Source: Eledone cirrhosa (lineage: Eukaryota). From it: a stretch of DNA of 64,000 bases. The translations under genes were made by a program, and so were the position numbers. Under the pieces are notes generated by a model that saw only the letters and a list, made by a program, of their open reading frames with translations, did no database searches and had not been told where the DNA came from. Location of the stretch: positions 24,738,001 through 24,802,000 of the forward strand of contig OZ024748.1 in assembly GCA_964016885.1 (NCBI GenBank), read 5' to 3'. Positions 20,153 to 62,391 of this stretch are shown here, piece after piece. Numbering within the stretch: position 1 is the stretch's first letter; each line of letters starts with the position of its first letter.

Positions 20153-20795
20153 GTATAAATCTTGATCTATCTACTCAGATAAACAACCATTATTGCTACA
20201 AACCTTAATCTATCTACTTAAAGGGGTTTTACTTTAAAAAATGGGGGCATTTCTAAAATTATTTACTGTGAAGTAACATTATTTAGTAGATAATTGGTAC
20301 TATGGAAGACATATTTTGCTGTGTAAAATGGAATATTATCATCTTCATCATCATCATCATCATCATCTAAATTTTATATACACTTTTCCATGCTTGCCAA
20401 ATACCAATCAAAACCACTAGGCATTTAGGCTAGGTTTTTACCAAGGGAAAGGCAATGGCCAATACACCTTGGCACCAGTGATGTCACAACTCATTTCTAC
20501 AGCTGTGTAACTGGAGGAACATAAAATAAAGTATCTTGCTCAAGGACAGAACACACCTCCAAGTCCGAAAATCAAACTCCCGATTGCTAGCCTAACACTC
20601 TAACTACTAAGCCATGTGCCTTATATATATATACATATATATATACGTTATTCCGGGTTGAATCGGAGGTAACCACAGTAAGTAAGGTACTCAATACATA
20701 GCAGAGTATAGAAGTTTTAATATAGATGAGATTCTACAGGACTAGAACTGTTTAATTCTTGAGAAATCATCAGGAATCTGATTATTTGGACAGTC

Positions 20796-20846
20796 AGATT
20801 CCTGATGATTTCTCAAGAATGAAACAGTTCTAGTCCTGTAGAATCT
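20796..20846 (+). ncRNA. Minimal type-I hammerhead ribozyme motif (Penelope/retrozyme type), inside a 69-bp-arm palindrome 20713-20862
   Basis: AGATTC-CTGATGA-tTTCtcaaGAAt-GAAACAG ttctagtc CTGTA-GAATCT; stems I/II/III pair; GUA triplet ends at 20840. Confidence 0.75.
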
Positions 20847-21871
20847 CATCTATATTAAAACTATATATATATATATATATCCATTAAAAGTGGCAACATA
20901 ATGCCAGACAGGAAACTTTAAATTTTAATCTTGCAAAATCCCTATGCATATTTCAATGACCCAGCTTCATCATCCAAATATAATGCAAGATGCAGGCGAT
21001 TTCATCAGGTGCTAATTGCAGAATTACTTATATAAGAGAACGGGAAATTGGTGAGCACAAACATTGAATAGAAAATAGAAGATCGATTTTGATTCGGTGT
21101 TATTGTAATTGCAGGTCATATATACATATATATATATACACACACACACACACATATAAAACTAGGTACATTTACACATGAATACATCGAGTAAGTCTTA
21201 CATATGTGTGTATAGATTTTTAGACCACTAACTGCACATATCTACACACCCAATCACATATATATGCAACCAAATACCTATTGCATATGTGAATTTAAAC
21301 ACATAATGAATCTATATATATTTATTCATAAGTGTGATATAGTCTATATATACATATTTGTGTGAGAGAAGGATAGAAAGGTAAATCAAAGAGAAAGAAA
21401 GAGAAGTTGGAAGATAACAGTTTTACTTAACAACAAATACCATGAGTTCTTTCTTTTTTGGCATGGATATTTTACTGTTCCTCAATTATCTGACTTCCAT
21501 TCCATTATAACTTTCAGTCTTTCTTCACCTTATTTCCTATAATTGTCTTTAATTTTTTACTCCAGGTGTAGTTAAGAGTTGGAATTTTATTCATTGCTTA
21601 TTCTGAGGGAGAACAGAGTTTTCTTCCAAACTTTATGAGGTTTTGTTGAAAAATGCGATGTTGTTTCATGACAAACAAACTATCATGTTTATTTTACATT
21701 CATACTCACACACAAACGCACATACATGCCCACATATGCATATACAGAGATATGCTCACAGACACACACATAAACACACATGCATGCTCACACACACATA
21801 CATAAACACACACTAGCATGTGCATGCACACACACACCCATACTAAATACCTATTTCTTCTTATGTTATAG

Positions 21872-22162
21872 ACAGCTGAAGAATTTGATGAGAACAAACA
21901 AACGAGGCCATCCATTATATTTATTAATTTGCCAGCTGACTTTCTGAAAGTTCTCAAAGAACTGCAGTATCTTTCATTGGAACCAGTAAAGTTGATTTGT
22001 CATTTAAGTGTCAGAGATATTTTAGATGATGTTCCATTAACAGAGCTACGCGGTGTAGTCAACAGACTTGAAATAGTTGTCCAGAAATACAATACCATCT
22101 TTCAGATGATCACTGATGTAGAAATACCATTTTTTCAAGGAAAATTTTATGAGATTGATCAT
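21872..22162 (+). CDS. Dynein HC-like exon 7
   Basis: ttatag / gtgagt; ...IFINLPADFLKVLKELQYL...VVQKYNTI...EIPFFQGKFYEIDH. Confidence 0.9.
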
Positions 22163-22244
22163 GTGAGTTAATGAGAGTTTAATTATTTCTTAACTGCCAT
22201 CATATCAATAATAACAACATCAATTGCATTCTTTTTATTATCAA

Positions 22245-22294
<50 letters not shown>

Positions 22295-22503
22295 GTAATG
22301 CATTTACTCTGGCAGATGTTATACTAACACTATACCAAAAGAGCGAGCCATAGCTAATTTGAGGGGGAGAGGGGAATCCTTCCCAGGTGCCCTCGAAGTG
22401 TTGGGTGGTTCAAGATTGGTGGGGTACCTGAATCACCTGTGAGTGGTTATCTCCTGTGTTATTGTTATTTATATTTACACATATTTATGTAAAACCCCCA
22501 TTG

Positions 22504-22542
<39 letters not shown>

Positions 22543-23394
22543 CCATCATTAGTCTGATGGATTGGCAGAATTCTTAAAACAACAGAAGCCTCACACTATT
22601 TAGTTCCAGTTCTTTTCTGTTCTGAGTTCAAATCCTACTGAGGTACACTTTGTCTTTCACCTTACAGGAATCGATAAAATAAAGTACTAGTAAAGCACTG
22701 GGATTGATTTAATCAACTTTCTCCTCCCCAGAAATGTATTGGCATTGTGCTGAGCACAGCTCTGTGTGCCTTGGGTATATGCACCACCTTACAGAGACAG
22801 AATTCTGTGAATGGACGATTCTGGATGGTTTAGCAGTTGCAAACTGGTTGTTAAGGCTGGCTGTTGATTTAGATTGTATGTGAAATTTGGCAAGAAATGT
22901 TATCTAGGCTACTAAAGCTGACCTCAGCATTGTTTATGCTGAAGAGATTGTAATGCTTGTGTTTTGTTAGTGTCTATACTTCATGCCTTTGATTGGGGTT
23001 CATCTGGAGATAAACTACATTTAGAACTCCTAACACAACATTAGGACACCAAATAACTTTTGAGGTTCATCAGGAGACAAATCTGCTGATCCTGGATTGG
23101 CAATATCAGTCATCTGTGTGTCTGCGCATGAAGCAGACAGAACTGATCTAAGCTTCAAATGGCACATTCATTATCAAAGTTATCACCAGCAACAACAGCA
23201 CTTAAGAAGGGCAGATAAATCATGGTTACATTGGAAATTACATTCAACATGTAAGGGGGATTTAACCACCTTATGTTTTTCTTTTTAGTTCTGTGGACGA
23301 TATTTCTTTTGATGTTCTGGGAGTTTAAAATATTTATAAGCTTTACTCATGGTTGTTTATGACTGATTATAATCAACTTATTCATTAATTACAG

Positions 23395-23621
23395 CTAATT
23401 AACAATGGTCTTCAGAAATTAACCTGGAAAATGAAAGAGTCTCTAGATTTTATTGAATCAGCAATGTCACTTGTTTGTAATGATGTTTATCAAAGTTTGG
23501 AAACTGTACAATCTAATTCTAAATTAATTGTTGAAATAACAACCAGCTGGGCTGACTACTTAGCACAGATTCCTGTCATTCAACAACCATTTACTATGGA
23601 ACAACTGGAACAGTTTAAAAG
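23395..23621 (+). CDS. Dynein HC-like exon 8 (end of DHC_N1)
   Basis: ttacag / gtaaat; LINNGLQKLTWKMKESLDFIESAM... Confidence 0.9.
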
Positions 23622-23743
23622 GTAAATATTTTAATTGGAGCTGTGGTTATCTTATCTTTGTTGTCGACACTGCCTTGTCTTTATATAGTTTCTATATACT
23701 TCATATATAAACCTTAAATAGCTCTTATCTAGTCTCTATCGTT

Positions 23744-23784
<41 letters not shown>

Positions 23785-24789
23785 TTAACATCTGATTTCC
23801 ATGCTAGCAAGGGTTGGTCTACATAGACCAAGTCAGTACTGAAGTAGGGGCTACTGACCTCCCAAACAGGCCAAGAGGTCTATATTTTGCTTATGTGTGG
23901 TCATAGGAATGCAGAAAAGAAGTTGTCATGTCTTTTGACACAAGCTGAAGGGTCCTTTCAAGTTTTCTATGGCTGGAAACCCTTCCTATCAGCAACCAAT
24001 TTACAGCATGTATTGGGTGTGTTTATTGTGTAGACCACTATATAGTTCATATATTATCCTTATATAGTTCATATATAGTTTTTATATAGTCCTTATATAG
24101 TACCTATATAATCCTAATATACTTCATATATAATCCTTATATAGTCTTTATATAGTCCTTATATAGTCTTTATATAATCCTTATATAGTTTTTATATATT
24201 CCTTATATAATATACAGACACACTCACCTGATCTGACTTGTCTCACAACTTGTCTAACTCATGCTAGCATGGAATATGGCTATTAAATGATGATGATGAT
24301 GGTGGTGGTGGTGGTGGTGGTGGTGGTGGTTGTTGTCGTCCATATATAACATTTTATGCATTCCATTTTAGTCCCTATATAGTTCTTTTATGTGTAGCCC
24401 ATGTATAGACAAATTCACCTCATATACATATTTTGCACTTATAGATATTGTAGGAGCAGTGTCTTTATACAACCAAGCTGTCCTTCTTCAAACATACTAT
24501 CACTATATGGTAAAATTGCCCTTATGCAAACATACTATTTCTATATTGGGAATTTTACCCTTACACAGACTTACACTCTTTATTCTACATTCTATCAACA
24601 AATAAAATATAAATTAATATTAACATATATAATATTCATGTCTAGATATAAGTTCACAGTTTTAAAAACATTGAAATTATTAAAAAAACTTTGGTGTTAA
24701 AATTGTTAGTTTTATATCAAATTATTAAATGAAATGTGATTTTGTTCACTCCATCATGGCACAAAGTTTCTGTTACACACGCACACAGT

Positions 24790-25150
24790 TTTTCTAGATG
24801 ACATCCAGAGAAAGACCACTTTAGTGGCATAAATCACTCACACGCATGTTCAAGCCTAGAGACAAGTTGTCTCCCCTATTTCACTCTTCTACTACTACTA
24901 TAATGGCCTCTGTCCTTCTGAATTAGCTGCTGTCAGGCTTCCTCAACTCAAGCCCTCCTGATTTACTCATCACTTTTTCTCTTACACCCCATATATATGT
25001 TGTTTCCAGCATCCCTTCTATTCCTCACACTAACCACTATGCCCAATCCTTCTTGTTCAGAACATCATCACCCCGGGATTCCCCCCTTGTTCATGTCTTT
25101 CCTACAGACATTAAATTTGCAACAGTTTAAGCAGAACATCAGCAACATCC
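24790..25150 (+). mobile_element. Decayed CR1/Jockey-group LINE RT C-terminal fragment
   Basis: Frameshifted translation FYYYYNGLCPSELAA...TNHYAQSFLFRTS...FPTDINLQQFKQNI. Confidence 0.6.
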
Positions 25151-25280
25151 AGGCCAGTGAAAACCACAGGAACTGCCCCTTCTCCCAGAATTAGCAAGGA
25201 AAACAAACGAAAAAAAAAGGATTTTTCTTAACAATTATTACATAAACATCTTTTGCTCTCTCTCTTACTTTCTTCATTAG

Positions 25281-25359
25281 CAACATTTTAGAGAAGTTCA
25301 AGGAACTACTGCTACCATCTAATCACAAGATTGGTTTATTGTTGAAATCTTCATTACAG
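25281..25359 (+). CDS. Dynein HC-like exon 9
   Basis: cattag / gtaag; NILEKFKELLLPSNHKIGLLLKSSLQ, phase 2-0. Confidence 0.82.
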
Positions 25360-25372
25360 GTAAGAAACTTAG

Positions 25373-25740
25373 TTCTTCTTCTTCTTCAACTCCCACTTAT
25401 TCCTGAGATGGTCGTGGGGGCAGAGTCCTCAAACACTCCTTCCAGCGGGTCCTCTCAGAAGCAACAGACTCCAACTAATCCAGCTGGATCCCTAGGAATG
25501 ACCAGCCAAGTTCATGGATGTTATCCAACCATCTTGCTCATTGTCAACTCCTGGGTCTCCTGCCAGTTGGTTTTGCCCGTAAAATCTGTCCAGCGATTCT
25601 TTCCTGAGACATTCTAACCACATGCCCATAGTATCGGAGCTGTGATCTCTCAATTTGGAGAAGTAGCATCTCTCTCTGGTGACTCTCTGATATCCGAACT
25701 ACACACTTTATCGAGTAACGTTACTCCAAGGACCCTTAGT
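25373..25740 (-). mobile_element. RTE-clade (Expander/Rex3-like) LINE 3' fragment
   Basis: Minus strand reads LLLQIERSQLRYYGHVVRMSQERIAGQILRAKPTGRRPR; (AAG)n tail. Confidence 0.8.
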
Positions 25741-25787
25741 TACAGGTAAAAAAATCTTGATTATAGGTAAGTTTGTTATCGAAAGGG

Positions 25788-26005
25788 TTAACCCTTTCGT
25801 AACAATGTTTGAAAATTTTAAGAATTTGGAGAGATTTAGTAAAATAATTAACCCTCTCATTATTAAACCAGTGTTCAGAACATCAAAAGTTCTTATATAA
25901 AATTATGATGGAATGCCTTTAGATAAATATAAACACTTTAAAAGAAACAGTTTTGTATCATAAAACCAGGGACTGTTTTAGTTAGTTTGGTATCAAAAGG
26001 GTTAA
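25788..26005. mobile_element. TTAA-bounded MITE-like element (piggyBac-like termini)
   Basis: TTAACCCTTT...AAAGGGTTAA ends; related copies near 36305-36699, 62697-62946, and partial at 44308 and 58908. Confidence 0.6.
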
Positions 26006-26034
26006 ATCATTTTATTTTCCCACTTGTTTCTAAG

Positions 26035-26178
26035 GTTCTTGAAGTCAGTGAAATATCACCATATTGGCAAGACTACCTCCTACATATTGATCTGATTATT
26101 GTCAATGGTTTAAAGAATGCAATCCAATCTCATCTTAAAATATTGTTGTCGTTCATCTCCAGGAATTCTGATACAAAG
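26035..26178 (+). CDS. Dynein HC-like exon 10
   Basis: ctaag / gtaag; VLEVSEISPYWQDYLLHIDLIIVNGLKNAIQSHLKIL. Confidence 0.9.
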
Positions 26179-26407
26179 GTAAGATAATGGTTTAATTACT
26201 TTGTCAAAGAAACTTCAATGGCATAGAGGAATAGATGGCAAAGCTGTGTGGTTAAGGAGTTTGCTTCTTAGCCATGTGGTTCTGGTTCTGGGTTCACTTC
26301 TGCTGTGTGGAACCTTGGGCAAGACTCTTTTTATATATCCCTTCCTTGATTGATTAATGTTCTGTGAGTGAAATTTTAAAAATGGAAACTATGGAAGCTC
26401 ATCATAT

Positions 26408-26501
<94 letters not shown>

Positions 26502-26527
26502 TGTGTGTAAGATTTAGTATAGAATGG

Positions 26528-26690
26528 CTTCTACAGGACTAGAACTGTTTCATTCATCTGAAATAATCAGGAATGTCCTGATTATTTCATACGAATGAAA
26601 CAGTTCTAGTCCTGTAGAAGTTATTTCTATATATAATAAAGATCCCTATACTCTACCAACGTGTTGAGTACCTTTTTTAACTGTGGTTGT
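26528..26690. mobile_element. Second copy of the hammerhead-palindrome element (core mutated to CTGATTA in both arms)
   Basis: CTACAGGACTAGAACTGTTTC...GAAACAGTTCTAGTCCTGTAG; flank is the reverse complement of the leader at about 20670-20711. Confidence 0.7.
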
Positions 26691-26761
26691 TGCCAACACA
26701 TATATATAAGCCCCGTCTAACCCATGCTAGCATGAAAAATGGACGTTAAACAGTGATGATG

Positions 26762-26826
<65 letters not shown>

Positions 26827-27836
26827 TATGTCTCTATTTGTGTTTATGTCCCATAATTTATCAGTTGGACAAAAAGAAATGAATAAAATAAGTACTTGAA
26901 ACAATAAAACTTGGGGTTGATATGATTGATTAAATCCCTTCACAGCAGTGCCCCAGCATGGCCACAGTATAATGACTGAAACTTGTAAAAGAATACAAGA
27001 CTAAATCCCTTCAAGGCAATGCCCCATCATGGCCACAGTATAATGTATGAAACTTGTAAAAGGGAATATGTATTTCAGTTGATTAGAAGAGAGGGAAAAT
27101 TGATTTCATGTATGGTGTAATTATAGGGCTTTCATGCCTAACCAAGATGGCAAATTTGCAGAGTCATTAGAACATTTGAGAGAATACATTGGGGTATTGG
27201 TTCCAGTTCTCTGACTTCAAATCCCACTGAGGCCAACTTTGTCTTTCATCCTTTCAAGGTTGATAAAAGAATGTACCAGTCTTGTACTGGGGTCGACTGT
27301 TCCTCTATAAATCTTTCTCTCTTCCTCTCTCTTTCCTTCTCTGGAAGAAACCAGCTGCTGTGTTCAGACCTGGAGAGGAGAGGGCCACTATAAGATTGCC
27401 CAAGATTCACCCTTATCCCTCCACTAGGAGTTACTGGTCCATAGTTACAAACATATATATAATGGTTTCTGATTTAGGCATAAGGACAACAATTTGGTGG
27501 GCAAATGTTTACTTCATCATCAACAAATATCAAACGAGGGAAGATGAAAATGAAAGTCACATCTCTCAATGAAATCTCTATTTACAAAAGTAGTGGTCCC
27601 AAAACACTTTGAGTCCCCTGGGAGGTGGTCCAAAAACATTTTGAGTCCTCTACCTTAGCAGGCAGGATCTGAACACAGAACGTAAAGGGCCATAACTCTA
27701 TGCTGCAAAGCATGGTGTCTGATGTTCTACTGATACTGCCAATCCACCGCCCTTATAATTACATACATATATCACAGCAGCTCTCCCCTCTCACTCCCCC
27801 AAGAGTTACAGCTCCATAGTTACATATACACACATA

Positions 27837-28168: not shown

Positions 28169-28219
28169 ATGATATATATATATATATTCTAATGTTATTT
28201 GTATTTATTTATATCTTAG

Positions 28220-28611: not shown

Positions 28612-28800
28612 TCCGCTCTCTTGCTCTGGAACCCTGACTTCAGCCTGACTAGGAGTAGGAAGCTGTCATTCCCTGACGTTATCTCTAGGGATACGGGAAT
28701 CAGCAGACAGGACCGGGGGGCAGCGATGGGGGACAGGGGATTCTGGGGCATGAGAGTGAGATCCATCATCTCGACAGTAGTCGACGAGTGATGATGATGT
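28612..28800 (+). mobile_element. LINE (RTE-like) 3' end fragment; second copy at about 54099-54222
   Basis: ATCTCTAGGGATACGGGAA...CATCTCGACAGTAGTCGA followed by (TGA)n in both copies. Confidence 0.7.
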
Positions 28801-29246
28801 GATATATATATATACAGGGTGTCCCATCTAACCCATGCTAGCGTGGAAGATAGATGTTAATCAACGATGATGATGATGTCCCTAGAATGCTGTTGAAGTG
28901 TGTATACATTTTTTTGGATACCCTGTATATATATAGTTCAAGAATAGACAAGGCAAATAGAGAGATGCAAAAACAAGTATATATATATATATAAATATAT
29001 ATATTGTTATACTTTGGGAGGGTCATGCTGCCAATAAAAACACATGCACCTGTTGGATTTCACTTCAATTTATTATAAGCTTCAAGTCGATTAGTTTAAT
29101 CACTGGAGGGTTGTTTAATTGCTGCTTGTCAAAACCCTTTTGTCACACATTCTGTGACCTCCACAGTGATTACTTTGGTTGTTATTTTGGATATCTCTTT
29201 TGTTCTGTCCTACACCATCTTGTTTTTGTGAGCTCACAAAAATGAA

Positions 29247-29308
<62 letters not shown>

Positions 29309-33126: not shown

Positions 33127-33698
33127 TTGTTCAATATTTAACATTTGACCTTAGTTTCAAAGTTGATCACTTGTTCAATATTTAACATTTGACCTTAGTT
33201 TCAAAGTTGATCACTTGTTCAATATTTAACATTTGACCTTAGTTTCAAAGTTGATCACTTGTTCAATATTTAACATTTGACCTTAGTTTCAAAGTTGATC
33301 ACTTGTTCAATATTTAACATTTGACCTTAGTTTCAAAGTTGATCACTTGTTCAATATTTAACATTTGACCTTAGTTTCAAAGTTGATCACTTGTTCAATA
33401 TTTAACATTTGACCTTAGTTTCAAAGTTGATCACTTGTTCAATATTTAACATTTGACCTTAGTTTCAAAGTTGATCACTTGTTCAATATTTAACATTTGA
33501 CCTTAGTTTCAAAGTTGATCACTTGTTCAATATTTAACATTTGACCTTAGTTTCAAAGTTGATCACTTGTTCAATATTTAACATTTGACCTTAGTTTCAA
33601 AGTTGATCACTTGTTCAATATTTAACATTTGACCTTAGTTTCAAAGTTGATCACTTGTTCAATATTTAACATTTGACCTTAGTTTCAAAGTTGATCAC
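33127..33698. repeat. 44-bp minisatellite, 13 identical copies
   Basis: TTGTTCAATATTTAACATTTGACCTTAGTTTCAAAGTTGATCAC x13 = 572 bp. Confidence 0.98.
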
Positions 33699-33745
33699 TA
33701 TTTAAGATGGATTAAACATTGCTGTAATATATTTTCTCTTGTCAG

Positions 33746-37860: not shown

Positions 37861-38095
37861 GTCATCATCATCGTCATCATCATCATAATCATCGCCACCA
37901 TTTTGAAACAGACGAAAATATATAGTTTTTTCGTCTGTGTAAATGAGGTGATTAATCTCATTTGCATATAAAGCTGTATAAGTTGGCTCAACTATGTTCG
38001 AAGCTAGATTTTTATTCTATTTTAAGTTGGCTCAACTTAAACTAGAATAAAAATCTAGCTTCGAACATAGCTGTATACAAATATGTATGTGAATT

Positions 38096-38182
38096 CTGGT
38101 AGTGGCAAGCAGGAAACACCGTCCTGACGAGAATCATTTAAGTTTGAAATGCATCGATGGTTGTCCCCCTTGCTTCTACCAG
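38096..38182 (+). ncRNA. Minimal type-I hammerhead ribozyme motif with long stem I
   Basis: ACCGTC-CTGACGA-gaat...gttt-GAAATGCATC-GATGGT; palindromic stem III ATGCAT; outer pairing CTGGTAG/CTACCAG and GCAAG/CTTGC. Confidence 0.65.
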
Positions 38183-38560
38183 ACACTGCTCAGTGGCACT
38201 GACCGCCAGTGTTATATTCATAGCTATAGCTTTCAGAATGTTTATTTATAAACATACTGTATTTCTTTAGATATACCAAATTCACATACATGTTTGTATA
38301 CAGTTATGTTGGAAGCTAAATTCTAAGTATACAGTTATATACTGAAGCTCACGGAGGAGATGACAAAGAAACGTGACAAGTGGAGAGATGCTGTGCTGAA
38401 TAGGACCCGTCCCACCCTTGCAAGCAGGGAAAAGCAGATATAAAAAAAAAAAATGATGATATATATATGAGTCTCCTCTGAAGGAATGTACCAAACAAAT
38501 ACCAAACAAATTGTTGTCAAGTGCATGGAAGTAAAACAAATTAATTTGCATACATATAAG

Positions 38561-39073
38561 TATTGGTTGGAAGAAGTTTAGGGAGCTGCTTCCTCTGTTG
38601 ACGAAGAAGGGTTTCTCCCTGCGTACGAAAGGCCGGTTGTATGATGCCTGTGTGAGGAGCGCGATGCTGCATGGTAGTGAGACATGGGCAGCAACCGCAG
38701 AGGATATGCGACGGCTGGAGAGAAATGAGGCAAGCATGCTCCGTTGGATGTGCAGTGTAAATGTGCGTGAACGACCCAGCATAAATGTGTTGAGAGAGAA
38801 ACTGTGTCTGAGAGGGATAGAATGTAGTGTACGGGAGAGGAGACTGAGGTGGTATGGACATGTGATGCGCATGGAGGATGACCGATGGGTGAAGAAGTGC
38901 CAGGAAATGCCAGTTGAAGGAAGACGTGGTAGAGGTAGACCACGAAAAACATGGGCGGAGGTGGTGAGAACAGACCTCAGATCATTGAAGCTCACGGTGG
39001 AGATGACGAGGGAGAGATGCTGTGCTGAATAAGACCCGTCCCACCCTTGCAAGCAGGGAAAAGCGGACGTAAA

Positions 39074-39108
<35 letters not shown>
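38561..39108 (+). mobile_element. RTE-clade LINE 3' fragment (ORF C-terminus, 3' UTR, (ATG)n); shorter copy at 38343-38460
   Basis: GWKKFRELLPLL...KGRLYDACVRSAMLHGSETW...RRLRWYGHVMRM...GRRGRGRPRKTW; uninterrupted frame suggests a young copy. Confidence 0.92.
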
Positions 39109-39384
39109 AAGTATGTGTATTTTGTATATCTAATGATATATGATATGTTTATAAATACACATTTAAATAAACAGTTGAATAAACATACGGATAAACATAC
39201 AAATAAACAGCTATGTTGGAGCAAACACCTTAATTATATATATGTGTATTTGGGCGTAGTCTGACTAAGGTACTCTCATGGAATGACCAAAGGAGGTTTA
39301 TTTTTCAACATATTGACTGTTATTAACCAAGATGCATGAACTTGTATCTATTATAGTTATTGCCATTCTCTGTTGTTTTCACAG

Positions 39385-40220: not shown

Positions 40221-41213
40221 AAAAAAGAAATCGAATGAATGTGAGTACTGATTGTATTAACTTTGATGACGTAAATGATTGTTATCGTCTGCTGCAACCT
40301 GTTGTACATCACTTTCACATAAGAGTAAGTTACGTGTTAAGAATTCAGAATCATGAGGATAGATATTATTCAAATGATAGATATATTTGGTTAGTTGCTC
40401 TATATATTGTATAACACTTCCATCACATCAGTATCTCTATTCTGCAGTTTTAGAAATTATGACTATACTTGATAATGATTAATTTAATACTCAATATATT
40501 TTTATATTAAATTAAGTAAATTGCCTGCACATCAAATTAAATACTAGAGGCGATTACAAATTGATCATGATGTGATAACCTAATTTAGATTTAAATTTAA
40601 TTATAATTATATAAATATTTAACTAAGTATTGGTAAGTGGAGTTCTGTGAATATTTTTATACATAAATTACCTTTACCATATTACTGAGTACCTTTAATT
40701 CAACAACACAGCACCCCTTTTTTTAAATATAAATACATTTATACATATATAATACTTTATATAAATACATTTATACATATATAATACTTTATATAAATAC
40801 ATTTATACATATATAATACTTTATATAAATACATTTATACATATATAACACTTATACACTTTTTAGAGCTTAACTGATCTCAACTTATTCTTACCTATAT
40901 GTAAATTGTAAATTCGTTTATTTAATTATCTATTAAACTTAACTAGGTACATCATTACTGTTAACTAGGTAAATCAGTCCTGTAGGAGCAAGACATGGTC
41001 ACTTGCCCACAACAGGACAACCTGTCTAACCCATGCTAGCATGGAAATATTGATGTAAAATGGTGATGATGATGGTGATGATATATATATAAGTATGTTT
41101 ATCACAGGGTCATCAGACAAGAACATATGTGTATATATATATATACTTGATGTAAAATAGTGATGATGATGATATATATATATGTATGTTTATCACAGGG
41201 TCATCAGACAAGA

Positions 41214-41260
<47 letters not shown>

Positions 41261-41478
41261 CTTGATGAAAAACGGTGATGATGATGATACATATATGTAT
41301 GTTTATCACAGGGTCATCAGACACGATCATATGTATATATATATATATATATACAGTATATATACATATATATACACAGATCTTTATGTATTGTGTTGTT
41401 ATATTTGTGCTGTGCTGTCTCTATCATCATCTTTATAATTTTACTATTTTATTACTCTATTACATGTTCCAGCTGTAA

Positions 41479-46234: not shown

Positions 46235-46273
<39 letters not shown>

Positions 46274-46406
46274 GTTGGAGCTCTGAAATAGCGATGTATA
46301 TATTAATATACATATTGTATATCTGATAATACACTGTATGTTTATTTTAAAACATTTTGAAGGCCTTTCACCATGAATTTAAGGTAGTGACTAACGTCAC
46401 ATTCCT

Positions 46407-46498
46407 AGCTTCAGCAAAAACAAAGGGAAATAACTGACGTGTTTCTCGCTGTTTAGCGGTTATCAAGGTTATATACCCCTCTGTTTTTGCTATGAGCT
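46407..46498 (-). ncRNA. Hammerhead ribozyme motif, U3-A8 core variant, inside a 326-bp-period partial tandem repeat (46268-46679)
   Basis: Minus strand: ATAACC-TTGATAA-cCGCTaaacAGCGa-GAAACACGTC-AGTTAT; extended stem I AGCAAAAACA/TGTTTTTGCT. Confidence 0.65.
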
Positions 46499-46873
46499 GT
46501 AGAAGCTGGATTCTTATAGAATACCAATTATATTTATGAGCTTATTAAACTCATTAACATACAGATTGGTTGCCAGCCCAGCATCAATTAGGGATTTGTG
46601 TAGGAGCTCTGAAATAATGATGTATATATGAATGTACGTATTGTATATTTAATAATATACTGTATGTTTATTTAAAAACCTTATATATATATATATGATC
46701 ATATATATGTTTTCTATGGTATGACACATGGCCAACCCTAGCCAGACTTGCCTGCCGGCGTGGACAACCCATCTAACCCATGCAAGCATGGAAAAATTGA
46801 CGTTAAACGGAAATGAGGATGATGAATGATGATATGGTGTTATATATAAGTTATATATATGTTATATACACTA

Positions 46874-52702: not shown

Positions 52703-52703
<1 letters not shown>

Positions 52704-53368: not shown

Positions 53369-53391
53369 GTGAGTAAAATATATAAAGTACT

Positions 53392-53698: not shown

Positions 53699-54922
53699 AC
53701 AACAACACTAGTGGACTAGTGTTGTCCCTAACGATAGCTGTAGCATTGAGAACATCTATTTCCAGAGTCTAGGATTGATATATCATATATATATCATATG
53801 TGTATGTGACAGCTCACACCTATGGAGGTTTAGCTGTCCTCCTCCAAGGTATATCTCGGTGCAGCTAGTTGCAAAATCCATCATCTTTTCAAATAGCTAA
53901 TAATGTGTGTGGGCGCCACTACTACACACATGTGAAAGAATTTGACAGCCAAGTCTTGAAGAAGGTGCTTTCTCCTCCGTGTGGTGGGTTACCCGGCACC
54001 AGATACCAACCTGGCATTTATACCTGTTGATATAGGTATACCTGTTGATATAGGTCCAGCCCCTGCTGCTTTCCCGGGTCCTGTTTCTGATCATAATGAT
54101 CTCTAGGGATACGGGAAGCAGTAGACAGGACCTGGGGGCAGCGATGGGGGACAGGGAATTCTGGGGCATGAGAGTGAGATCCATCATCTCGACAGTAGTC
54201 GAGGAATGATGATGATGATGATATCTCGCTGGAGGTGTCTTGGGTAATTTAATGATAGGGACTCCAGTCCTATCATCATATATATCAGGATTACCAGATA
54301 TATGAACAATCATACTGTACTTAGTGGTTTATATAAGACAAGTGGATTGTGGATTAGTGCTGTCACTAATGACACTTCTATCTTTTATATCATTTTATAT
54401 TTATCACCATCATCATCATCAATAATCATTATCATCATCATCGTCACTACCATCATCATAACGATCGTCATCTTTACCATAGTCATCATTACCAGTCACC
54501 GTCATCATCATCATTGTCATTGTCATTGTCACCATCGTCATCATCACTCTTGTCACCATCATCATCATCATCACCTCTACTACCATCATCATCACCTCCA
54601 CCACCATCATCATTCTCATTAGGTTGTGTCTACTATGCATCTATCTAATACTATCGAAAGTTAACTACAGACATGTCCATAATGGGAGCTACAGTCACTT
54701 CCATGGTTGTCTATGGTAGGATTTGAACTCACAATACAAAGAGTTAAAACAGATACTGCAAGGCATGTAGTCTAACCCATACCAATACAGAAAATGATGA
54801 TGATGATGCTGATTTTGTTGAAGCTTTAATGATTCTGCCAAATTTGTTACTTTTTTAAATATTTATATAAATATCTTATTTTTTGTTATTATTATTTTTT
54901 CTTGTTTCATTTAAATTTTCAG

Positions 54923-55149: not shown

Positions 55150-55611
55150 GTAATAATTACCTCTGTTCACTGTCTTATTGTTACCTATAGAAGTGGTTGG
55201 TGTTAGGAAGGGCATCTAGCCTTAGAAAGCTTGCCAAACAAAGGGTTGGGAGGATCCTTCAAGTATGTCAAAGACATGACAACCTCCTTAGTGTTGGTGA
55301 TCTACATGATAAAAGTATCCAGTACACACTGCAAATTCACTGATGAAAGGAAGGGCATCCAACCATAGAAAGCTGACCAAACAAAAGGTTAAGAGTACTC
55401 TTTAGTTACAACAAAGACATGACAACCTCTTTAGTGTTGGTGCTATGATAAAATGCACTTGGTGGAGTGTGGGACCGTATATAAATGAAATACAGACCTT
55501 TAGCCTGTCTGAGAGGTCTATAGCCCAGCTGGAGTACTGATTCAGTCTGCGGAGACCCATATAACCCTTACTAGCAGAGAAAATGGACGTTAAATGTTGA
55601 TGATGATTCAC

Positions 55612-58260
55612 ATATTACTACTGTTCCCTGTCCTATTATTACTGTCCCCTGTCCTATCATTACTACTGTCCTCTGTCCTATTACTACTGTCCCCCCTGTC
55701 CTATTACAACTGTCCCCTGTCCTATTACTAATGTCCCCCCTGTGCTATTACAACTGTCCCCTGTCCTATTACAACTATCCACTGTCTCCTATTACTACAA
55801 CTGTCCACTGTCTCCTATTACTACAACTGTCCACTGTCCTATTACTACTGTCCCCCTGTCCTATTACTACTGTCTCCTGTCCTATTATTACTCTCCCATG
55901 TCCTATTACTACTGTCCCATGTCCTATTACTACTGTCCCCTGTCCTATTACTACTGTCCCCCTGTCCTATTATTACTGTCTCCTGTCCTATTACTACTGC
56001 CCCATGTCCTATTACTACTGTCTCCTGTCCTATTACATCTGTCCCCCCTGTCCTATTATAACTGTCCCCTGTCCTATTACTACTGTCTTCCCTGTCCTAT
56101 TACAACTGTCCCCTGTCCTGTTACAACTACCCACTGTCTCCTATCATTACAACTGTCCCCTATCTCAGATTACAACTATTCCCTGTCCTATTACTACTAC
56201 TGTCCATTGTCCTATTATTACTACTGTTTCCTGTCTCCTATCATTACAACTGTCCACTGTCCACTGTCCCCTATCTCAGATTACAACTATTCCCTGTCCT
56301 ATTACTACTACTGTCCATTGTCCTATTATTACTACTGTTTCCTGTCTCCTATCATTACAACTGTCCACTGTCCACTGTCCCCTATCTCAGATTACAACTA
56401 TTCCCTGTCCTATTACTACTACTGTCCATTGTCCTATTATTACTACTGTTTCCTGTCTCCTATCATTACAACTGTCCACTGTCCACTGTCCCCTATCTCA
56501 GATTACAACTATTCCCTGTCCTATTACTACTACTGTCCATTGTCCTATTATTACTACTGTTTCCTGTCTCCTATCATTACAACTGTCCACTGTCCACTGT
56601 CCCCTATCTCAGATTACAACTATTCCCTGTCCTATTACTACTACTGTCCATTGTCCTATTATTACTACTGTTTCCTGTCTCCTATCATTACAACTGTCCA
56701 CTGTCCACTGTCCCCTATCTCAGATTACAACTATTCCCTGTCCTATTACTACTACTGTCCATTGTCCTATTATTACTACTGTTTCCTGTCTCCTATCATT
56801 ACAACTGTCCACTGTCCACTGTCCACTGTCTCAGATTACAACTATTCCCTGTCCTATTACTACTACTGTCCATTGTCCTATTATTACTACTGTTTCCTGT
56901 CTCCTATCATTACAACTGTCCACTGTCCACTGTCCCCTATCTCAGATTACAACTATTCCCTGTCCTATTACTACTACTGTCCATTGTCCTATTATTACTA
57001 CTGTTTCCTGTCTCCTATCATTACAACTGTCCACTGTCCACTGTCCACTGTCTCAGATTACAACTATTCCCTGTCCTATTACTACTACTGTCCATTGTCC
57101 TATTATTACTACTGTTTCCTGTCTCCTATCATTACAACTGTCCACTGTCCACTGTCCCCTATCTCAGATTACAACTATTCCCTGTCCTATTACTACTACT
57201 GTCCATTGTCCTATTATTACTACTGTTTCCTGTCTCCTATCATTACAACTGTCCACTGTCCACTGTCCCCTATCTCAGATTACAACTATTCCCTGTCCTA
57301 TTACTACTACTGTCCATTGTCCTATTATTACTACTGTTTCCTGTCTCCTATCATTACAACTGTCCACTGTCCACTGTCCACTGTCTCAGATTACAACTAT
57401 TCCCTGTCCTATTACTACTACTGTCCATTGTCCTATTATTACTACTGTTTCCTGTCTCCTATCATTACAACTGTCCACTGTCCACTGTCCCCTATCTCAG
57501 ATTACAACTATTCCCTGTCCTATTACTACTACTGTCCATTGTCCTATTATTACTACTGTTTCCTGTCTCCTATCATTACAACTGTCCACTGTCCACTGTC
57601 CCCTATCTCAGATTACAACTATTCCCTGTCCTATTACTACTACTGTCCATTGTCCTATTATTACTACTGTTTCCTGTCTCCTATCATTACAACTGTCCAC
57701 TGTCCACTGTCCACTGTCTCAGATTACAACTATTCCCTGTCCTATTACTACTACTGTCCATTGTCCTATTATTACTACTGTTTCCTGTCTCCTATCATTA
57801 CAACTGTCCACTGTCCACTGTCCCCTATCTCAGATTACAACTATTCCCTGTCCTATTACTACTACTGTCCATTGTCCTATTATTACTACTGTTTCCTGTC
57901 TCCTATCATTACAACTGTCCACTGTCCACTGTCCCCTATCTCAGATTACAACTATTCCCTGTCCTATTACTACTACTGTCCATTGTCCTATTATTACTAC
58001 TGTTTCCTGTCTCCTATCATTACAACTGTCCACTGTCCACTGTCCCCTATCTCAGATTACAACTATTCCCTGTCCTATTACTACTACTGTCCATTGTCCT
58101 ATTATTACTACTGTTTCCTGTCTCCTATCATTACAACTGTCCACTGTCCACTGTCTCCTATCATTACAACTGTCCACTGTCCACTGTCTCCTATCATTAC
58201 AACTGTCCACTGTCCACTGTCTCCTATCATTACAACTGTCCACTGTCCACTGTCTCCTAT
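55612..58260. repeat. Minisatellite: about 20-bp CTGTCCTATTACTA subunits grading into a 111-bp higher-order unit (about 18 copies)
   Basis: 111-bp period (CTATCTCAGA at 56271, 56382, ...); produces the two long spurious ORFs. Confidence 0.97.
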
Positions 58261-58303
58261 TAATTCTCTTAATCCAATTAGACTCCAATTTGGTGTTTTA
58301 CAG

Positions 58304-58394
58304 AATTATGTTTCTGAAATATCTATCAACACGAACAGAGTTTCTAAACTGCTCAGAATTCTGGAAAGGAAGAAAATGACGTGTATAAAATCAG
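58304..58394 (+). CDS. Dynein HC-like exon 31
   Basis: tttacag / gtttgt; NYVSEISINTNRVSKLLRILERKKMTCIKS, phase 0-1. Confidence 0.8.
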
Positions 58395-58606
58395 GTTTGT
58401 TTTTCTTCCTCCTCCTCCTCCTCCTTATCATCCTCACATCCTCCTCCTCTAACCATTACATCAACATCACCACTCTCACCAATGTCTGCTCCTACAATAT
58501 AAATTCCTTTAACTGATGTCATCTGAGGAAGCTAATTAATTCCCTGTAGTTCAGAGTTGTTCCTCATATTTATTAACACATTTGTTGTTGTTGTTGTTGT
58601 TTCCAG

Positions 58607-58848
58607 AACTAGAACCAGTTGTTGGTTCAACAGAAGAAGTCTTTGACCAGACACAGACTGAAGGAATACAGCCTCATATCTACAGTCAACAGATAGCAAA
58701 ACTGAAATGTTTTCTTTTGTGCCAATGTCATTTTAAAGATGTACTTATACAGATATTGGACTCTTTCATTGAACCACAGCATAACTTTTATTGGAAGATT
58801 CAACTAAACTATGTTTTAGACACTGAAGAAAAATCTGTTGAAATTAAA
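58607..58848 (+). CDS. Dynein HC-like exon 32
   Basis: ttccag / gtgag; ...KLKCFLLCQCHFKDVLIQI...NFYWKIQLNYVLD. Confidence 0.92.
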
Positions 58849-58907
58849 GTGAGATTCTTTATTTATAGGGATCATGTTAAAGAAGGGTGCTGTTCTCATA
58901 GTTGTTA

Positions 58908-59085
58908 TTTAACCCTTTCATTACTATATTGCTAATGAAAGACACTGTCTATGTCATTAACCCTTTCATTACCATATTTCTAATGAAAGACACTGTTTAT
59001 GTCATTAACCCTTTCATTACCATATTTATAATGAAAGACACTGTCTATGTCATTAACCCTTTCATTACCATATTTCTAATGAAGA
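58908..59085. repeat. 48-bp tandem repeat (about 3.5 copies) formed from a MITE terminus
   Basis: TAACCCTTTCATTACCATATTTCTAATGAAAGACACTGTCTATGTCAT repeated, then continues into MITE-like body. Confidence 0.85.
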
Positions 59086-59336
59086 CAAATGCTCATGTAT
59101 TTGTTTCAAATAATTTTGAAAATAACCTAGAATTTAGATAGATTTAGTAAAACTAGCATTTAGAAGATAACAAAGTTTCTCACATTAAGCAACTTTGTGA
59201 TGTCAAACAGGGACGATGTTAACTGGTTAGATATAGAGGTTAAGATTATCAATTCTTCCCTTCTCTTTGAAGAAAACCACACTTGAAATTTGTAATAAAT
59301 GTGAACATTTGAAACTATACTAAGGCCACAATATGA

Positions 59337-59663
59337 CATCATCATCATCATCATTTTTACGTACGCTTTTCCCTGCTTGCAAGGGTGGAACGGGAACTGA
59401 TTCTGGCTTGATTTCTACAGCTGGATGCCCTTCCTAACACCAACCTCATTTACAGTGAGTGCTGGGTGCTTTTTTGCCGTGGCACTCCACGACCACTTTG
59501 CAGTGGAATGATAGGGACCCCAGTCCCTATCATCTCATTTCTACAGCTGAGTAAACTGTGAAATAAAGTGCCTTGCTCAAGGAAACAACACATCACCCGG
59601 TCTGAGAATTGAACTCACAACCTTTCGATTGCAAGGCCAATGCTCTAACCCCTAAGCCTCCAT
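59337..59663 (-). mobile_element. SINE family A, antisense copy with small deletions
   Basis: Reverse complement of 45742-46068; (CAT)n at the left end. Confidence 0.9.
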
Positions 59664-59674
59664 AAAAATAAGGA

Positions 59675-59749
59675 AGGGGACGACACCCGGGATTGAACCA
59701 GGGACCTCTCGATCTGCAGTCGAATGCTCTACCACTGAGCTATATCCCC
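59675..59749 (-). tRNA. trnC-GCA: tRNA-Cys(GCA) gene or recent pseudogene (3-nt duplication in the 3' acceptor strand)
   Basis: GGGGATATAGCTCAGTGGTAGAGCATTCGACTGCAGATCGAGAGGTCCCTGGTTCAATCCCGGGTGTCGTCCCCT; anticodon at 59715-59717; T5 terminator-like run just downstream. Confidence 0.88.
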
Positions 59750-59999
59750 AGCGATGATGACAGTTACAGTGATGGTATATAAATATATATGATGTATAAA
59801 TGTATATATTTGACATTATATATAACATACATACATATCATCATCATCATCATTGTTTAACGTTCACTTTCCACGCTAGCATGGGTTAGACGGGTTGTAC
59901 CATTTGAGGCAAGTTGGGTCATGTGACCGTGTCTTGTTCATATAGAACTGTTTCTGGATAGATTCTACAGTTGGATGCCCTTCTTAATGCCAACCCCAT

Positions 60000-60650
60000 T
60001 TACACTGTGTGCTAGATGCTTTTTATCATGCTACCCACATGACCACTTTACAGTGTGGGCTGGGTGGTTTTTATCATGCTACCCACAGGACCACTTTACA
60101 GTGTGGGCTGGGTGGTTTTTATCATGCTACCCACAGGACCACTTTACAGTGTGGGCTGGGTGGTTTTTATCATGCTACCCACAGGACCACTTTACAGTGT
60201 GGGCTGGGTGGTTTTTATCATGCTACCCACAGGACCACTTTACAGTGTGGGCTGGGTGGTTTTTATCATGCTACCCACATGACAACTTTACAGTGTGGGC
60301 TAGGTGGTTTTTATCATGCTACCCACATGACAACTTTACAGTGTGGGCTGGGTGGTTTTTATCATGCTACCCACATGACAACTTTACAGTGTGGGCTAGG
60401 TGGTTTTTATCATGCTACCCACATGACAACTTTACAGTGTGGGCTGGGTGGTTTTTATCATGCTACCCACAGGACCACTTTACAGTGTGGGCTAGGTGGT
60501 TTTTATCATGCTACCCACATGACCACTTTACAGTGTGGGCTGGGTGGTTTTTATCATGCTACCCACATGACCACTTTACAGTGTGGGCTGGGTGGTTTTT
60601 ATCATGCTACCCACATGACCACTTTACAGTGTGGGCTGGGTGGTTTTTAT
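60000..60650. repeat. 48-bp minisatellite (about 13 copies) expanded inside an antisense SINE-A-related tail starting about 59835
   Basis: TTACAGTGTGGGCTGGGTGGTTTTTATCATGCTACCCACA(G/T)GACCACT; upstream GGATGCCCTTCTTAATGCCAACC matches the SINE segment at 59421-59445. Confidence 0.93.
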
Positions 60651-60838
60651 GCCTTGGAGTTTAACTTCTCCGTATAACTAAAACAAAAAAAAAAGATACT
60701 TATGTGTGAGTGTATATATATATATATATAAAGGTTTACATATATATATATATATACATATATACATATACGTGTTTTGCAATGGGTTGCTTTGTGGCTC
60801 AATGAAAAGTTAATAAATTAAATAATCAGAGCTATATA

Positions 60839-61033
60839 TCATAAAACATGTCTATAGAATCACCAGATAAAATATATACCATTTCCTCTCCCAATTAGGC
60901 GTGAAGGGCTGGTTTCGGTTATTTGTTGGAGATTTCTTCATAGAAGCCTTATTTTTATATGGTTAATTATGCTAATTGGGAGAGGAAATGGTATATATAT
61001 TTTATCTGGTGATTCTATAGACATGTTTTATGA
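60839..61033. repeat. Foldback: about 60-bp near-perfect inverted arms with about 73-nt spacer, between (TA)n tracts
   Basis: TCATAAAACATGTCTATAGAATCACCAGATAAAATATATACCATTTCCTCTCCCAATTAG and its reverse complement at 60972-61033. Confidence 0.9.
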
Positions 61034-61261
61034 ATTATATATATATATATATGATATATATATATGTATATATATAATATATATATATGTATATATATAA
61101 TATATATATATGTATATATATATGATATACATATGTATATATATATATATGATATATATGTATATATATATATGATATATATGTATATATATGATATATA
61201 TGTATATATATATATGATATATACATATATATATATATGTCATATATGATATATATTTCAG

Positions 61262-61405
61262 CACCTATACTCAAGTTTCAAATATGGATTTGAATACTTA
61301 GGTACCCTAGAAAGAGAGATGATATTCCCAGTGACAGAAAAATCTTTGATACAATTATTGAGGACTGTAACATCATTTAATGCGGGCCTTTGTATTGGAG
61401 ATCAA
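61262..61405 (+). CDS. Dynein HC-like exon 33 (start of AAA1)
   Basis: tttcag / gtaag; HLYSSFKYGFEYLGTLEREMIFPVTEKSLIQLLRTVTSFNAGLCIGDQ. Confidence 0.93.
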
Positions 61406-62310
61406 GTAAGAATAACATTTTTCAAGTTTAATTAATTTCTGTTATTTTTCATTGAAGCTGAACCCGAATCACATTAGTGTCATTAAATTTGGAGGCCTGT
61501 CAAAGGTTATGAGTAGTGCTGCCTTCTGATTTTATCATCACCACCATTTACTTCACTTTCTATACTAGCATGGGCTGGAAGAGTTTGGCATGGTTTCTAC
61601 ACCTGGATGCCCTTCCTAAAGCCAACCACTTTACAGAATGTACTGAGTGTGTTTTTCATGACCCTAGCACTACCACTTTACAAAATGGATTGGGTACAGT
61701 TTGTCATAGCACCAACACTAGAGAGGTTATATAGTATATCATCATATATATATGGCGTATCATCACATATATATGGCATATCACCATATACATGGCATAT
61801 CACCATATATATATATATATATGGCATATCATCATATATATCTATATGGCATATCACCATATATATTTATATGGCATATCATCATATATATATATGACAA
61901 ATCATCATATATATGGTGGTTGTCTGCTCCTTGCAGAACTATACCTTTTCTTTTACATATAACCACTCTTTATAGTGTGAGATCTTAAATGACTTTTGGC
62001 CCTGAAAGCTGTTTGAAGAGCTGACTACAAATACTACAGCAATGTCTTATTTCAGCATTAGCTCCATTTTTCCACTTGTTTATAATGAATGTTTGAGTGC
62101 CGTTTCAGGTGTTTTGATAAACATGGCATTGAAACACACACACATATACATATGTGTGCTTGTATGTGTGTGCTTGTATGTGTGTGTTTGTGTGTGTGTG
62201 TGTTTGTGTGTGTGTACATATATATATATATGCAAGTCAATTGAAATAAAATCTGAAGGTGTGTGCAAAAATTCCATGTAGTAGCAATATGCAGACATAG
62301 AAACTTGTAT

Positions 62311-62391
62311 AAGTGCCTGAAGATTAGGTCATACTTTTGATCCCTCTTACATTCTGGTCAATATTGGGTCTTGAAATCTTAGGTAGCGCTT
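62311..62391 (+). ncRNA. Hammerhead ribozyme motif with long stem II
   Basis: AAGTGC-CTGAAGA-ttAGGTC...GGTCTt-GAAATCttaGGTA-GCGCTT; GUA triplet ends at 62385. Confidence 0.6.

Follow-up and report, generated by a model that had tools for sequence, protein, structure and literature searches.

The hammerhead-bearing repeats described here are likely dead insertions, made into (TA)n tracts by the reverse transcriptase and endonuclease of Penelope-like elements (PLEs) through the mechanism proposed below. In the window (the whole 64,000-nt stretch of DNA that was analyzed), all hammerhead motifs are intronic, located between exons of a dynein heavy chain gene that extends past the window limits. 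The domain matches to this gene each fall under the curated cut-off because the exons are short. The repeats are referred to as A, A2, B, B3, C and D.

13837-63410, forward strand: exons of the host gene, dynein heavy chain, with DHC_N1, DHC_N2 and AAA_6 matched in order
20647-20790, reverse strand: main arm of A, with a hammerhead carrying G12>U (core at 20773) and about 88 nt of 3' sequence up to a TA tract
20790-20862, forward strand: short inverted arm of A, with an intact core at 20802, ending at (TA)n 20862-20880
26509-26698, main arm on the forward strand and short inverted arm on the reverse strand: A2, the second family A insertion, with G8>U in both arms
37966-38101, reverse strand: inverted copy of B's own 3' end, folded back on itself at 37989-38073
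38096-38345, forward strand: main arm of B, with a minimal hammerhead core at 38124 and a 3' segment common to C
39105-39245, no strand assigned: B3, a decayed inverted fragment pair of the B/C 3' segment, without a ribozyme core
46268-46682, reverse strand: C, a non-coding unit of 326 nt with a further 89 nt of terminal redundancy, and (TA)n at both ends
46405-46500, reverse strand: hammerhead of C, with a U3-A8 core at 46466, a long extended stem I and a predicted cut after 46436
62233-62436, forward strand: D, 204 nt with a TA tract on each side and a hammerhead-like core at 62317

The earlier note on this DNA had named four hammerhead cores, at 20796, 38096 and 62311 on the forward strand and at 46407 on the reverse strand; A, B and C exceed shuffled sequence, and D is doubtful. 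Position 46407 is the base of C's extended stem I and not its core, and the predicted cut sites of A, B and D lie after 20840, 38155 and 62385, respectively. With descriptors that were adjusted once the motifs had been seen, a strict search (stem I of at least 6 bp) returned two motifs, A and B, against none in every one of 40 shuffles, and a relaxed search returned seven matches, including all four motifs, against a shuffle mean of 0.84 (n = 300). A cut-off of -20 on the extended stem I was passed by B (-31.4 kcal/mol) and C (-27.1 kcal/mol) only, with no match in 300 shuffles. The other relaxed-scan matches (21051, 37383 and 49909) were discarded as being at chance level. Decayed look-alikes had also been proposed, and these did not hold up: a scan allowing one core mismatch gave six matches, comprising B, C and four that are no more than chance would give (2.65 per shuffle; 23177, 25249, 36113 and 51155, all discarded), and the only other decayed relative detected in the window is B3. 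Three CUGAUGA repeats at 41050-41375 on the reverse strand were ruled out, as they have neither a stem II nor GAAA downstream.

The type-I core (C3-U4-G5-A6-N7-G8-A9, G12-A13-A14, A15.1-U16.1, H17) is present in the short arm of A, in B and in D, and C fits it only through its covarying U3-A8 pair; the core is broken in the main arm of A and in both arms of A2. Stem I closes on the core with 6 bp in the three type-I motifs and with a 1.1-2.1 mismatch in C. Stem III is palindromic and would permit dimers, with self-duplex energies of -12.8 (A), -4.7 (B), -4.0 (D) and -2.3 kcal/mol (C). The G10.1-C11.1 pair that opens stem II is absent from all four motifs, where positions 10.1-11.1 are U-U (A, in four of four arms), G-U (B), C-A (C) and U-U (D); U10.1-U11.1 is a tolerated natural hammerhead variant (PMC3088659). 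Active-fold probabilities predicted for B, C and D were run without a positive control and left out as evidence. In D, a stem I of 6 bp and a palindromic stem III, a type of match found 0.018 times per shuffle (1000 shuffles), go with a poor 49-nt stem II; 188 of 200 shuffles fold better than its region, no relative or repeat of it was found within the window, and it may be a decayed member or a chance match.

Family A is represented twice. A G8-mutant pair reported at 26528 was confirmed, as both arms (26509-26631) carry the substitution, and it is a second copy of family A (71.5% identical to A over 200 columns), with stem I truncated in both arms and 2 nt separating its 3' end from a short TA tract. 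The short arm of A has a 6-bp stem I, U10.1-U11.1 followed by a 3-bp stem II, and a 4-bp stem III with a palindromic loop, and folds with the main arm, whose 3' end is about 65 nt longer, into a 70-bp hairpin. Stems II and III are conserved in the family without compensatory change. Both A and A2 show an inverted truncated arm with a one-sided extension, an arrangement described for PLEs (PMC8557442). A pattern scan for family A in metagenome contigs gave no match.

The four motifs had been described as unrelated sequences; B and C, in fact, have about 110 nt of 3' sequence in common (z 7.6, 0 of 200 shuffles; nhmmer E 0.001 and 0.008), and the window therefore holds at most three lineages, not four. 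The common segment lies 57 nt (B) and 54 nt (C) past the cut, with a C3-G8 core in B and U3-A8 in C. The likeness of B and C is not significant in the ribozyme part itself, where their equivalence is argued by spacing. B has a palindromic AUGCAU stem III and a long extended stem I (38096-38182). The open reading frame adjoining it (38535-39029; 438 homologues, mostly unnamed) is presumably the end of an RTE-type LINE and not a PLE partner. A pattern scan for the B/C 3' motif matched no metagenome contig and no viral contig.

The C unit has 34% GC, contains no open reading frame and is predicted to be highly paired, its predicted fold as a circle having a z of -5.2 against 60 shuffles. Its terminal redundancy (46594-46682 against 46268-46356) is 87.6% alike, and the locus thus holds 1.27 unit copies. 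The window copy has mismatches at C2.1-A1.1 and C10.1-A11.1, the first of which is a pair in most relatives. In public reads, with 2462, 4225, 713 and 3 records placed on C in four runs, C is a multi-copy family found in two organisms; run X13 (organism J) contributed only the three records, with the ribozyme uncovered. The letter at 46435 that restores C2.1-G1.1 accounts in X1 for 1122.6 of a depth of 1232.3 (39 contigs), in X14 for 31 of 34 reads and in X4 for 442.5 of a depth of 773.5 (22 contigs), and a change from G-U to G-C at 46492 for 1349.9 of 1507.7, 18 of 22 and 664.5 of 797.7 in the same runs, respectively. Among the variants listed, the best-supported insertions in the ribozyme lie in loop 3. 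A depth of about 1,300-1,400 over the ribozyme, against 3.9-15.5 in seven of the eight X1 contigs listed, suggests a family on the order of 100 copies, summed contig depth not being equal to copy number. In addition, read depth steps roughly two-fold across the predicted cut site in three runs.

Six of the eight contigs listed for X4, and one of the eight listed for X1, continue from the ribozyme region into the repeat upstream, and the short period of 326 nt is therefore a family trait. Joints that go back 326 nt were rejected as evidence of circles or arrays because a read that matches the two terminal repeats in succession would produce such joints as well. Opposite-strand joints are present among the relatives. 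TA-type loose ends of C relatives were found in three of the four runs, 29 nt inside the 3' end of C in 52 contigs (X1), 311 reads (X14) and 18 contigs (X4); the family has two 3' end classes 29 nt apart, and many copies end early in (TA)n.

The elements had been said to be mostly bounded by (TA)n. This stands for eight of 11 ends, which have a (TA)4+ tract no more than 7 nt away (3.7% of positions lie within 6 nt of one), and fails for B, whose tracts are 114 and 493 nt away; the two ends of D are not independent evidence because the tracts defined them. The inverted or partial tandem repeats ascribed to each element were recovered as inverted repeats in A, A2 and B and a partial tandem repeat in C, and D has none. 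As had been stated, no coding partner was found in the window: none of 269 non-repetitive frames of at least 42 amino acids within 13,600-64,000 matched the reverse transcriptase or GIY-YIG Pfam families. The proposed link to PLE pseudo-LTRs or retrozymes is backed by this anatomy and, for C, by family-level reads. The claim of multiple non-autonomous families is borne out only for C, whose 326-nt period recurs in other contigs. A, A2 and B can just as well, or better, be taken for the 5'-truncated, inverted ends of longer elements, which is also how most single minimal hammerheads are described by Cervera and De la Peña (PMC4209133).

In the mechanism that we propose, a PLE protein encoded elsewhere would nick TA-rich DNA and prime reverse transcription; the priming point would lie about 90-190 nt downstream of the ribozyme, with two alternative start sites in family C that are separated by about 29 nt. 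In A, A2 and B, synthesis would halt just beyond the ribozyme and an inverted second copy would be added, leaving only the pseudo-LTR end. In C, synthesis would cross the entire 326-nt non-coding unit and enter the next, which implies as template a tandem transcript or circle of a non-autonomous retrozyme-like derivative. As the whole core is kept across the cut site in each insertion, the template would have been uncut or re-ligated there. Ribozymes of the source arrays would cut as dimers through their palindromic stem III, and the single intronic copies are predicted to be inactive passengers. An optional tail of 30-40 nt between two reverse transcription start sites is described for a PLE (PMC11167929); the two end classes of family C fit this, and the extension of about 65 nt in A is longer than usual. 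PLE hammerhead mutants insert nonetheless in vitro (PMC11167929), which fits the G8>U copy, A2.

It is very improbable that the motifs arose as chance matches, AT-rich and repeat-rich though the DNA is. An Rfam scan of the window gave no hammerhead family among 96 matches (E up to 5), relaxed descriptors yield 0.84 to 2.65 matches per shuffle and D folds poorly, yet no shuffled match equals A, B or C under matching descriptors, and relatives of C restore broken pairs. For D alone is chance an appreciable possibility, by our estimate still the lesser one. The near-perfect hairpins of A and A2, with TA at their ends, could also mark DNA elements of a fold-back or MITE-like type that inserted at TA, in which the hammerhead look would be incidental. 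This is hardly more probable, as A and A2 have unequal arms, their extensions are homologous, the turn-round point is not the same in the two, and a 38-nt ribozyme block has been kept across four arms, with variation confined to loop II and to single positions of the core, while the flanks diverge.

A less remote alternative, though still an unlikely one, is that the elements all represent independent retrozyme families, non-autonomous and spreading via small circular RNAs. The C unit, with its terminal redundancy and family-wide period, lies inside the 170-400 nt range of animal retrozymes (PMC7229834), and in C alone the features of a retrozyme unit (non-coding, about 170-400 nt, GC below 45%, type-I hammerhead) were seen together. 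However, each locus has one ribozyme, and two tandem ribozymes, as in the criterion of bioRxiv 10.64898/2026.07.22.740005, occur at none; A, A2 and B end at or just upstream of the ribozyme, and no contig spanning two C units is present among 19 listed of 3422 pieces. The earlier note was right that three motifs (the short arm of A, B and D) are sense to the dynein pre-mRNA, C being antisense, and had suggested that they cut introns co-transcriptionally. That they cut the nascent transcript and alter splicing or output is improbable, even though all three are intronic, A has an intact core with a 4-bp stem III and a tolerated U10.1-U11.1, and the stem I of B is stable. The short arm of A is predicted to be zipped into the 70-bp hairpin by the earlier-transcribed arm (-116 versus -39 kcal/mol, a penalty of 76 kcal/mol), D folds no better than shuffles and is predicted to lack a stable fold, and stem III of B is predicted to span 1 bp, B having neither another copy nor a complementary partner anywhere in the window; its heterodimers with A, C and D are unusable (-0.5 to +0.5 kcal/mol, versus -4.7 for B with B). 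Introns that are cut can still be spliced. The elements are predicted not to cut the dynein transcript, and an effect on the dynein gene is unlikely. In published work, single minimal motifs showed no cleavage (PMC4209133), eight of nine Xenopus dimers did not cleave (bioRxiv 10.64898/2026.07.22.740005) and an anole PLE site gave no RNA-seq ends (PMC11167929).

The preferred reading, PLE-made insertion, agrees with the minimal hammerheads of metazoan PLEs (PMC4209133) in the type-I cores, the short palindromic helix III, the mostly single copies, the close opposite-strand pairs, the U3-A8 variant (known from Cercyon) and the many dissimilar families per genome. The elements differ from these in lacking G10.1-C11.1, in a short, weak stem II (7-8 bp there), in the very long extended stem I of B and C, and in having no linked PLE open reading frame in the window. 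The Poseidon PLE of Anolis (Frangieh et al. 2024, PMC11167929) likewise has AT-rich targets, two tail-separated 3' end classes and inserted copies that retain a ribozyme dispensable for insertion, whereas its open reading frame starts within the ribozyme and no such frame follows B or C. C resembles animal non-LTR retrozymes (PMC7229834; bioRxiv 10.64898/2026.07.22.740005) in its non-coding, low-GC unit with a type-I hammerhead, its length beyond one unit and its predicted highly paired circle, and differs in the single ribozyme per locus and the U3-A8 core. Retrozyme monomers and intronic copies are common in Xenopus, where about 43% overlap introns (bioRxiv 10.64898/2026.07.22.740005), and mussel has about 5000 hammerheads in retrozyme-type repeats (PMC7229834).

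The SINE and microsatellite content of the DNA is octopus-like, and protein searches with the dynein exons returned no match beyond an assignment to the dynein family. If the host is an octopus, the elements are probably pieces of the 190 PLE families annotated in Octopus vulgaris (Bonar et al. 2026, PMC13282606), in which "ribozyme" has no occurrence in the text and "hammerhead" none in the supplement. Their density, about 3% of 13,600-64,000, would then be expected because PLEs make up 6.83% of that species' genome (PMC13282606 supplement). None of the titles and abstracts found describes cephalopod hammerhead families, most subscription journals being outside the scope of the search, and the giant squid annotation reports only 235 hammerhead-1 loci (PMC6962438).

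Finally, these elements extend PLE hammerheads and retrozyme-like units, a kind that is itself known and common, to another animal genome, and standard Rfam scans miss hammerheads like A, B and C. More tentatively, and on balance doubtfully, this genome group may carry a very large hammerhead load missed by Rfam, one part of it being a U3-A8 retrozyme family with a 326-nt unit that continues to be produced as circular RNA; if so, the two-fold depth step at the cut site of C would mean that many copies come from self-cleaved RNA. Three to four intact cores per 50 kb would, if typical, amount to the order of 100,000 per genome, a density biased upward here as the window was chosen for its hammerhead motifs. 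If such a density were genome-wide, this would be a good system in which to study the role of the hammerhead in PLEs.

The six intronic pieces bear out part of the earlier note, whose observation is confirmed in part and whose interpretation is supported in part. It had parsed hammerhead cores in these sequences, correctly as to sequence, and had interpreted them as non-autonomous ribozyme retroelements, linked to Penelope-like elements (PLEs) and retrozymes, some of which could also cut the introns carrying them; the insertion anatomy supports the link to PLEs, and the intron cutting is not supported. The pieces are, in window coordinates:

20802, + strand: core of hammerhead element A
26509-26698: A2, a pair of inverted arms related to A
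38124, + strand: core of hammerhead element B
39105-39245: B3, decayed piece of a segment common to B and C
46268-46682, - strand: element C (core at 46466), a 326-nt unit in 1.27 copies
62317, + strand: core of the hammerhead-like motif D

Every hammerhead descriptor was fixed after the motifs had been seen, and with that limit a strict type-I descriptor (stem I of at least 6 bp) found A and B and had no matches in any of 40 block-wise dinucleotide shuffles, a relaxed descriptor permitting a covarying 3-8 pair gave 7 matches versus an average of 0.84 across 300 shuffles, and one modelled on A, B and D gave 0.018 matches per shuffle (1000 shuffles). The core of C has U3-A8. Extended stem I energies were -31.4 kcal/mol for B and -27.1 kcal/mol for C, where no match in 300 shuffles reached -20, and -10.0 kcal/mol for D, a level met by 0.14 matches per shuffle. 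B and C folded better than all 200 of their shuffles, and D folded worse than 188 of 200. Rfam returned no hammerhead among 96 matches. The G10.1-C11.1 pair is absent from all four motifs; U-U at these positions, as in family A, is described as a natural variant in PMC3088659.

Compared with A, the pair at 26509-26698 is 71.5% alike over 200 columns (z 23.5) and reads as a second insertion of family A. Across the four family-A arms the ribozyme block differs only at loop II, at G8 (both A2 arms) and at G12 (one A arm), with no compensatory change in the block, and the flanks diverge. The two A2 arms (26509-26631) share G8>U and differ only in loop II and flanks, suggesting two different templates, both with U8, and a mobile subfamily with a broken or variant core. 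On the 3' side of the ribozyme, B and C have about 110 nt in common (z 7.6, 0 of 200 shuffles), beginning 57 nt (B) or 54 nt (C) past the predicted cut. As A2 belongs to family A and B and C share a segment, the sequences resolve into two secure lineages, A and B/C, plus D as one doubtful singleton.

In both A and A2, a main arm carrying a long 3' extension is joined to a shorter arm in inverted orientation, and the point at which the sequence turns round differs between the two. The 5' side of B bears an inverted copy of its own 3' end; in C, direct repeats of 89 nt are spaced 326 nt apart, and a TA tract bounds each end. Eight of 11 element ends, counting two of D that are not independent, lie at most 7 nt from (TA)4+, against a background of 3.7% of positions within 6 nt; both B ends and one A2 end have no such tract so near. 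PMC8557442 gives as marks of PLE insertion truncated and partly tandem copies, an inverted copy next to the element, a tail on one side only and microsatellites as targets. The absence of a coding partner in the window, as previously noted, held, as none of 269 non-repetitive frames of at least 42 aa in 13,600-64,000 matched RT or GIY-YIG families in Pfam. By analogy with published PLE biochemistry, a PLE protein would have carried out target-primed reverse transcription at TA-rich sites, from a start point downstream of the ribozyme; synthesis would have terminated early with inversion in A, A2 and B, and read through more than one unit in C. The whole core is kept on both sides of the cut site, which would mean that the templates were uncut or re-ligated, in agreement with the account in PMC11167929 that unprocessed RNA is the main PLE substrate and that ribozyme mutants still insert. 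The C template may have been circular or a tandem transcript; in circular form it is predicted to pair well (z -5.2, 60 shuffles).

Four of 16 listed public sequencing runs were compared with 46255-46720 at 80% likeness. Matches to C comprised 2462 contigs in X1 (organism A, perhaps the same sample as the window), 4225 reads in X14 (organism A, a separate RAD-Seq study), 713 contigs in X4 (organism B) and 3 records in X13. Among the 40 variants listed (132 more exist), two lie within the ribozyme or its extended stem, and each gives better pairing: that at 46435 restores C2.1-G1.1 (1122.6/1232.3 in X1, 31/34 in X14, 442.5/773.5 in X4), and that at 46492 turns G-U into G-C (1349.9/1507.7, 18/22 and 664.5/797.7). 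Of three insertion forms reported at 46439-46440, in loop 3, one gives a better palindrome when read against the window's copy (-3.3 kcal/mol); the other two, at +0.3, give no improvement. Contigs that run from the ribozyme region on into the repeat lying upstream (6 of 8 listed in X4, 1 of 8 listed in X1) show that the short, ORF-less period also occurs beyond this locus. TA-type loose ends at 46623 (52 contigs in X1, 311 reads in X14, 18 contigs in X4; agreement 0.55-0.67) mark C copies stopping 29 nt short of the window's copy, an offset resembling the anole PLE tail between two RT start sites (PMC11167929).

Depth in X1, which is not copy number and may be inflated at the ends by AT-rich matches, was about 1,300-1,400 on the ribozyme, about 2,500-3,400 just 3', up to 11,700 just 5' and as much as 136,500 over the 3' segment, a profile that suggests that C lies within a larger superfamily with variable ribozymes. 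Across the predicted cut after 46436, depth stepped from 2450 to 1348 (X1), 61 to 37 (X14) and 1270 to 810 (X4), locatable only to 16-nt bins. In X1, one contig over 46349-46536 has a depth of 332, and a joint between opposite strands (46414/46568) a depth of 310; these point to a young near-identical C subfamily, or an array in which an inversion is fixed.

The window consists of animal DNA with many microsatellites and SINE-like repeats, and its repeats look octopus-like. Dynein heavy chain exons lie on the + strand as DHC_N1, DHC_N2 and AAA_6 pieces, in that order; with such short exons, each scores under the Pfam curated cut-off. AG/GT signals were seen at the exons inspected, and the motifs of A, A2, B, C and D all lie between exons. 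Also present are a 12.6-kb satellite (904-13546; a 37-39 nt unit repeated about 330 times and showing higher-order periods) and very homogeneous minisatellites at 33127-33699 (44 nt x13, 100%), 56152-58162 (111 nt x18, 99%) and 59999-60650 (48 nt x13.6, 97%, derived from part of a common SINE). An intact-looking tRNA-Cys(GCA) gene (59676-59749, - strand, 56.5 bits) directly abuts the head of a tRNA-derived SINE copy (59341-59658). A LINE-like 3' fragment (38345-39110; open frame of 165 aa, 438 homologues) lies between B and the piece B3, with direct repeats of 72 nt on either side (38374-38445 and 39004-39074), and a GC-rich 126-nt repeat at 28681-28805 and 54099-54224 is 94% alike with an (ATG)n tail at its end.

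A-to-I editing is extensive in cephalopods, and the inverted insertions (20713-20862, 26509-26631, 37989-38073, 38052-38322), which form near-perfect 40-70 bp hairpins in the dynein pre-mRNA, could be substrates for it. Co-transcriptional cutting of the introns, as the earlier note had proposed, is unlikely. The upstream arm of A, transcribed before the ribozyme, is predicted to pair with all of the ribozyme (-116 kcal/mol, compared with -39). B needs a dimer for cutting; the window holds no second B core, though the dynein gene runs past it and may carry partners farther off, and heterodimers with the stem III segments of other motifs are predicted to be unfavourable. D has no stable predicted fold, and C is antisense to dynein. 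In published systems, minimal motifs are described as not cutting as monomers (PMC4209133), and 8 of 9 Xenopus dimers are reported not to have cut (bioRxiv 10.64898/2026.07.22.740005).

PMC4209133 already describes minimal hammerheads at PLE ends, along with the U3-A8 core, pairs on opposite strands and widespread single copies; mollusc retrozymes are described in PMC7229834, and a PLE origin of Xenopus retrozymes in the preprint, whose supplements may list further families. PLEs are given as 6.83% of the O. vulgaris genome, in 190 families (PMC13282606); together the six pieces cover about 1,550 of 50,400 nt (3%), so their presence would be expected if the host is an octopus. The specific families, and their going undetected by Rfam, may be new.
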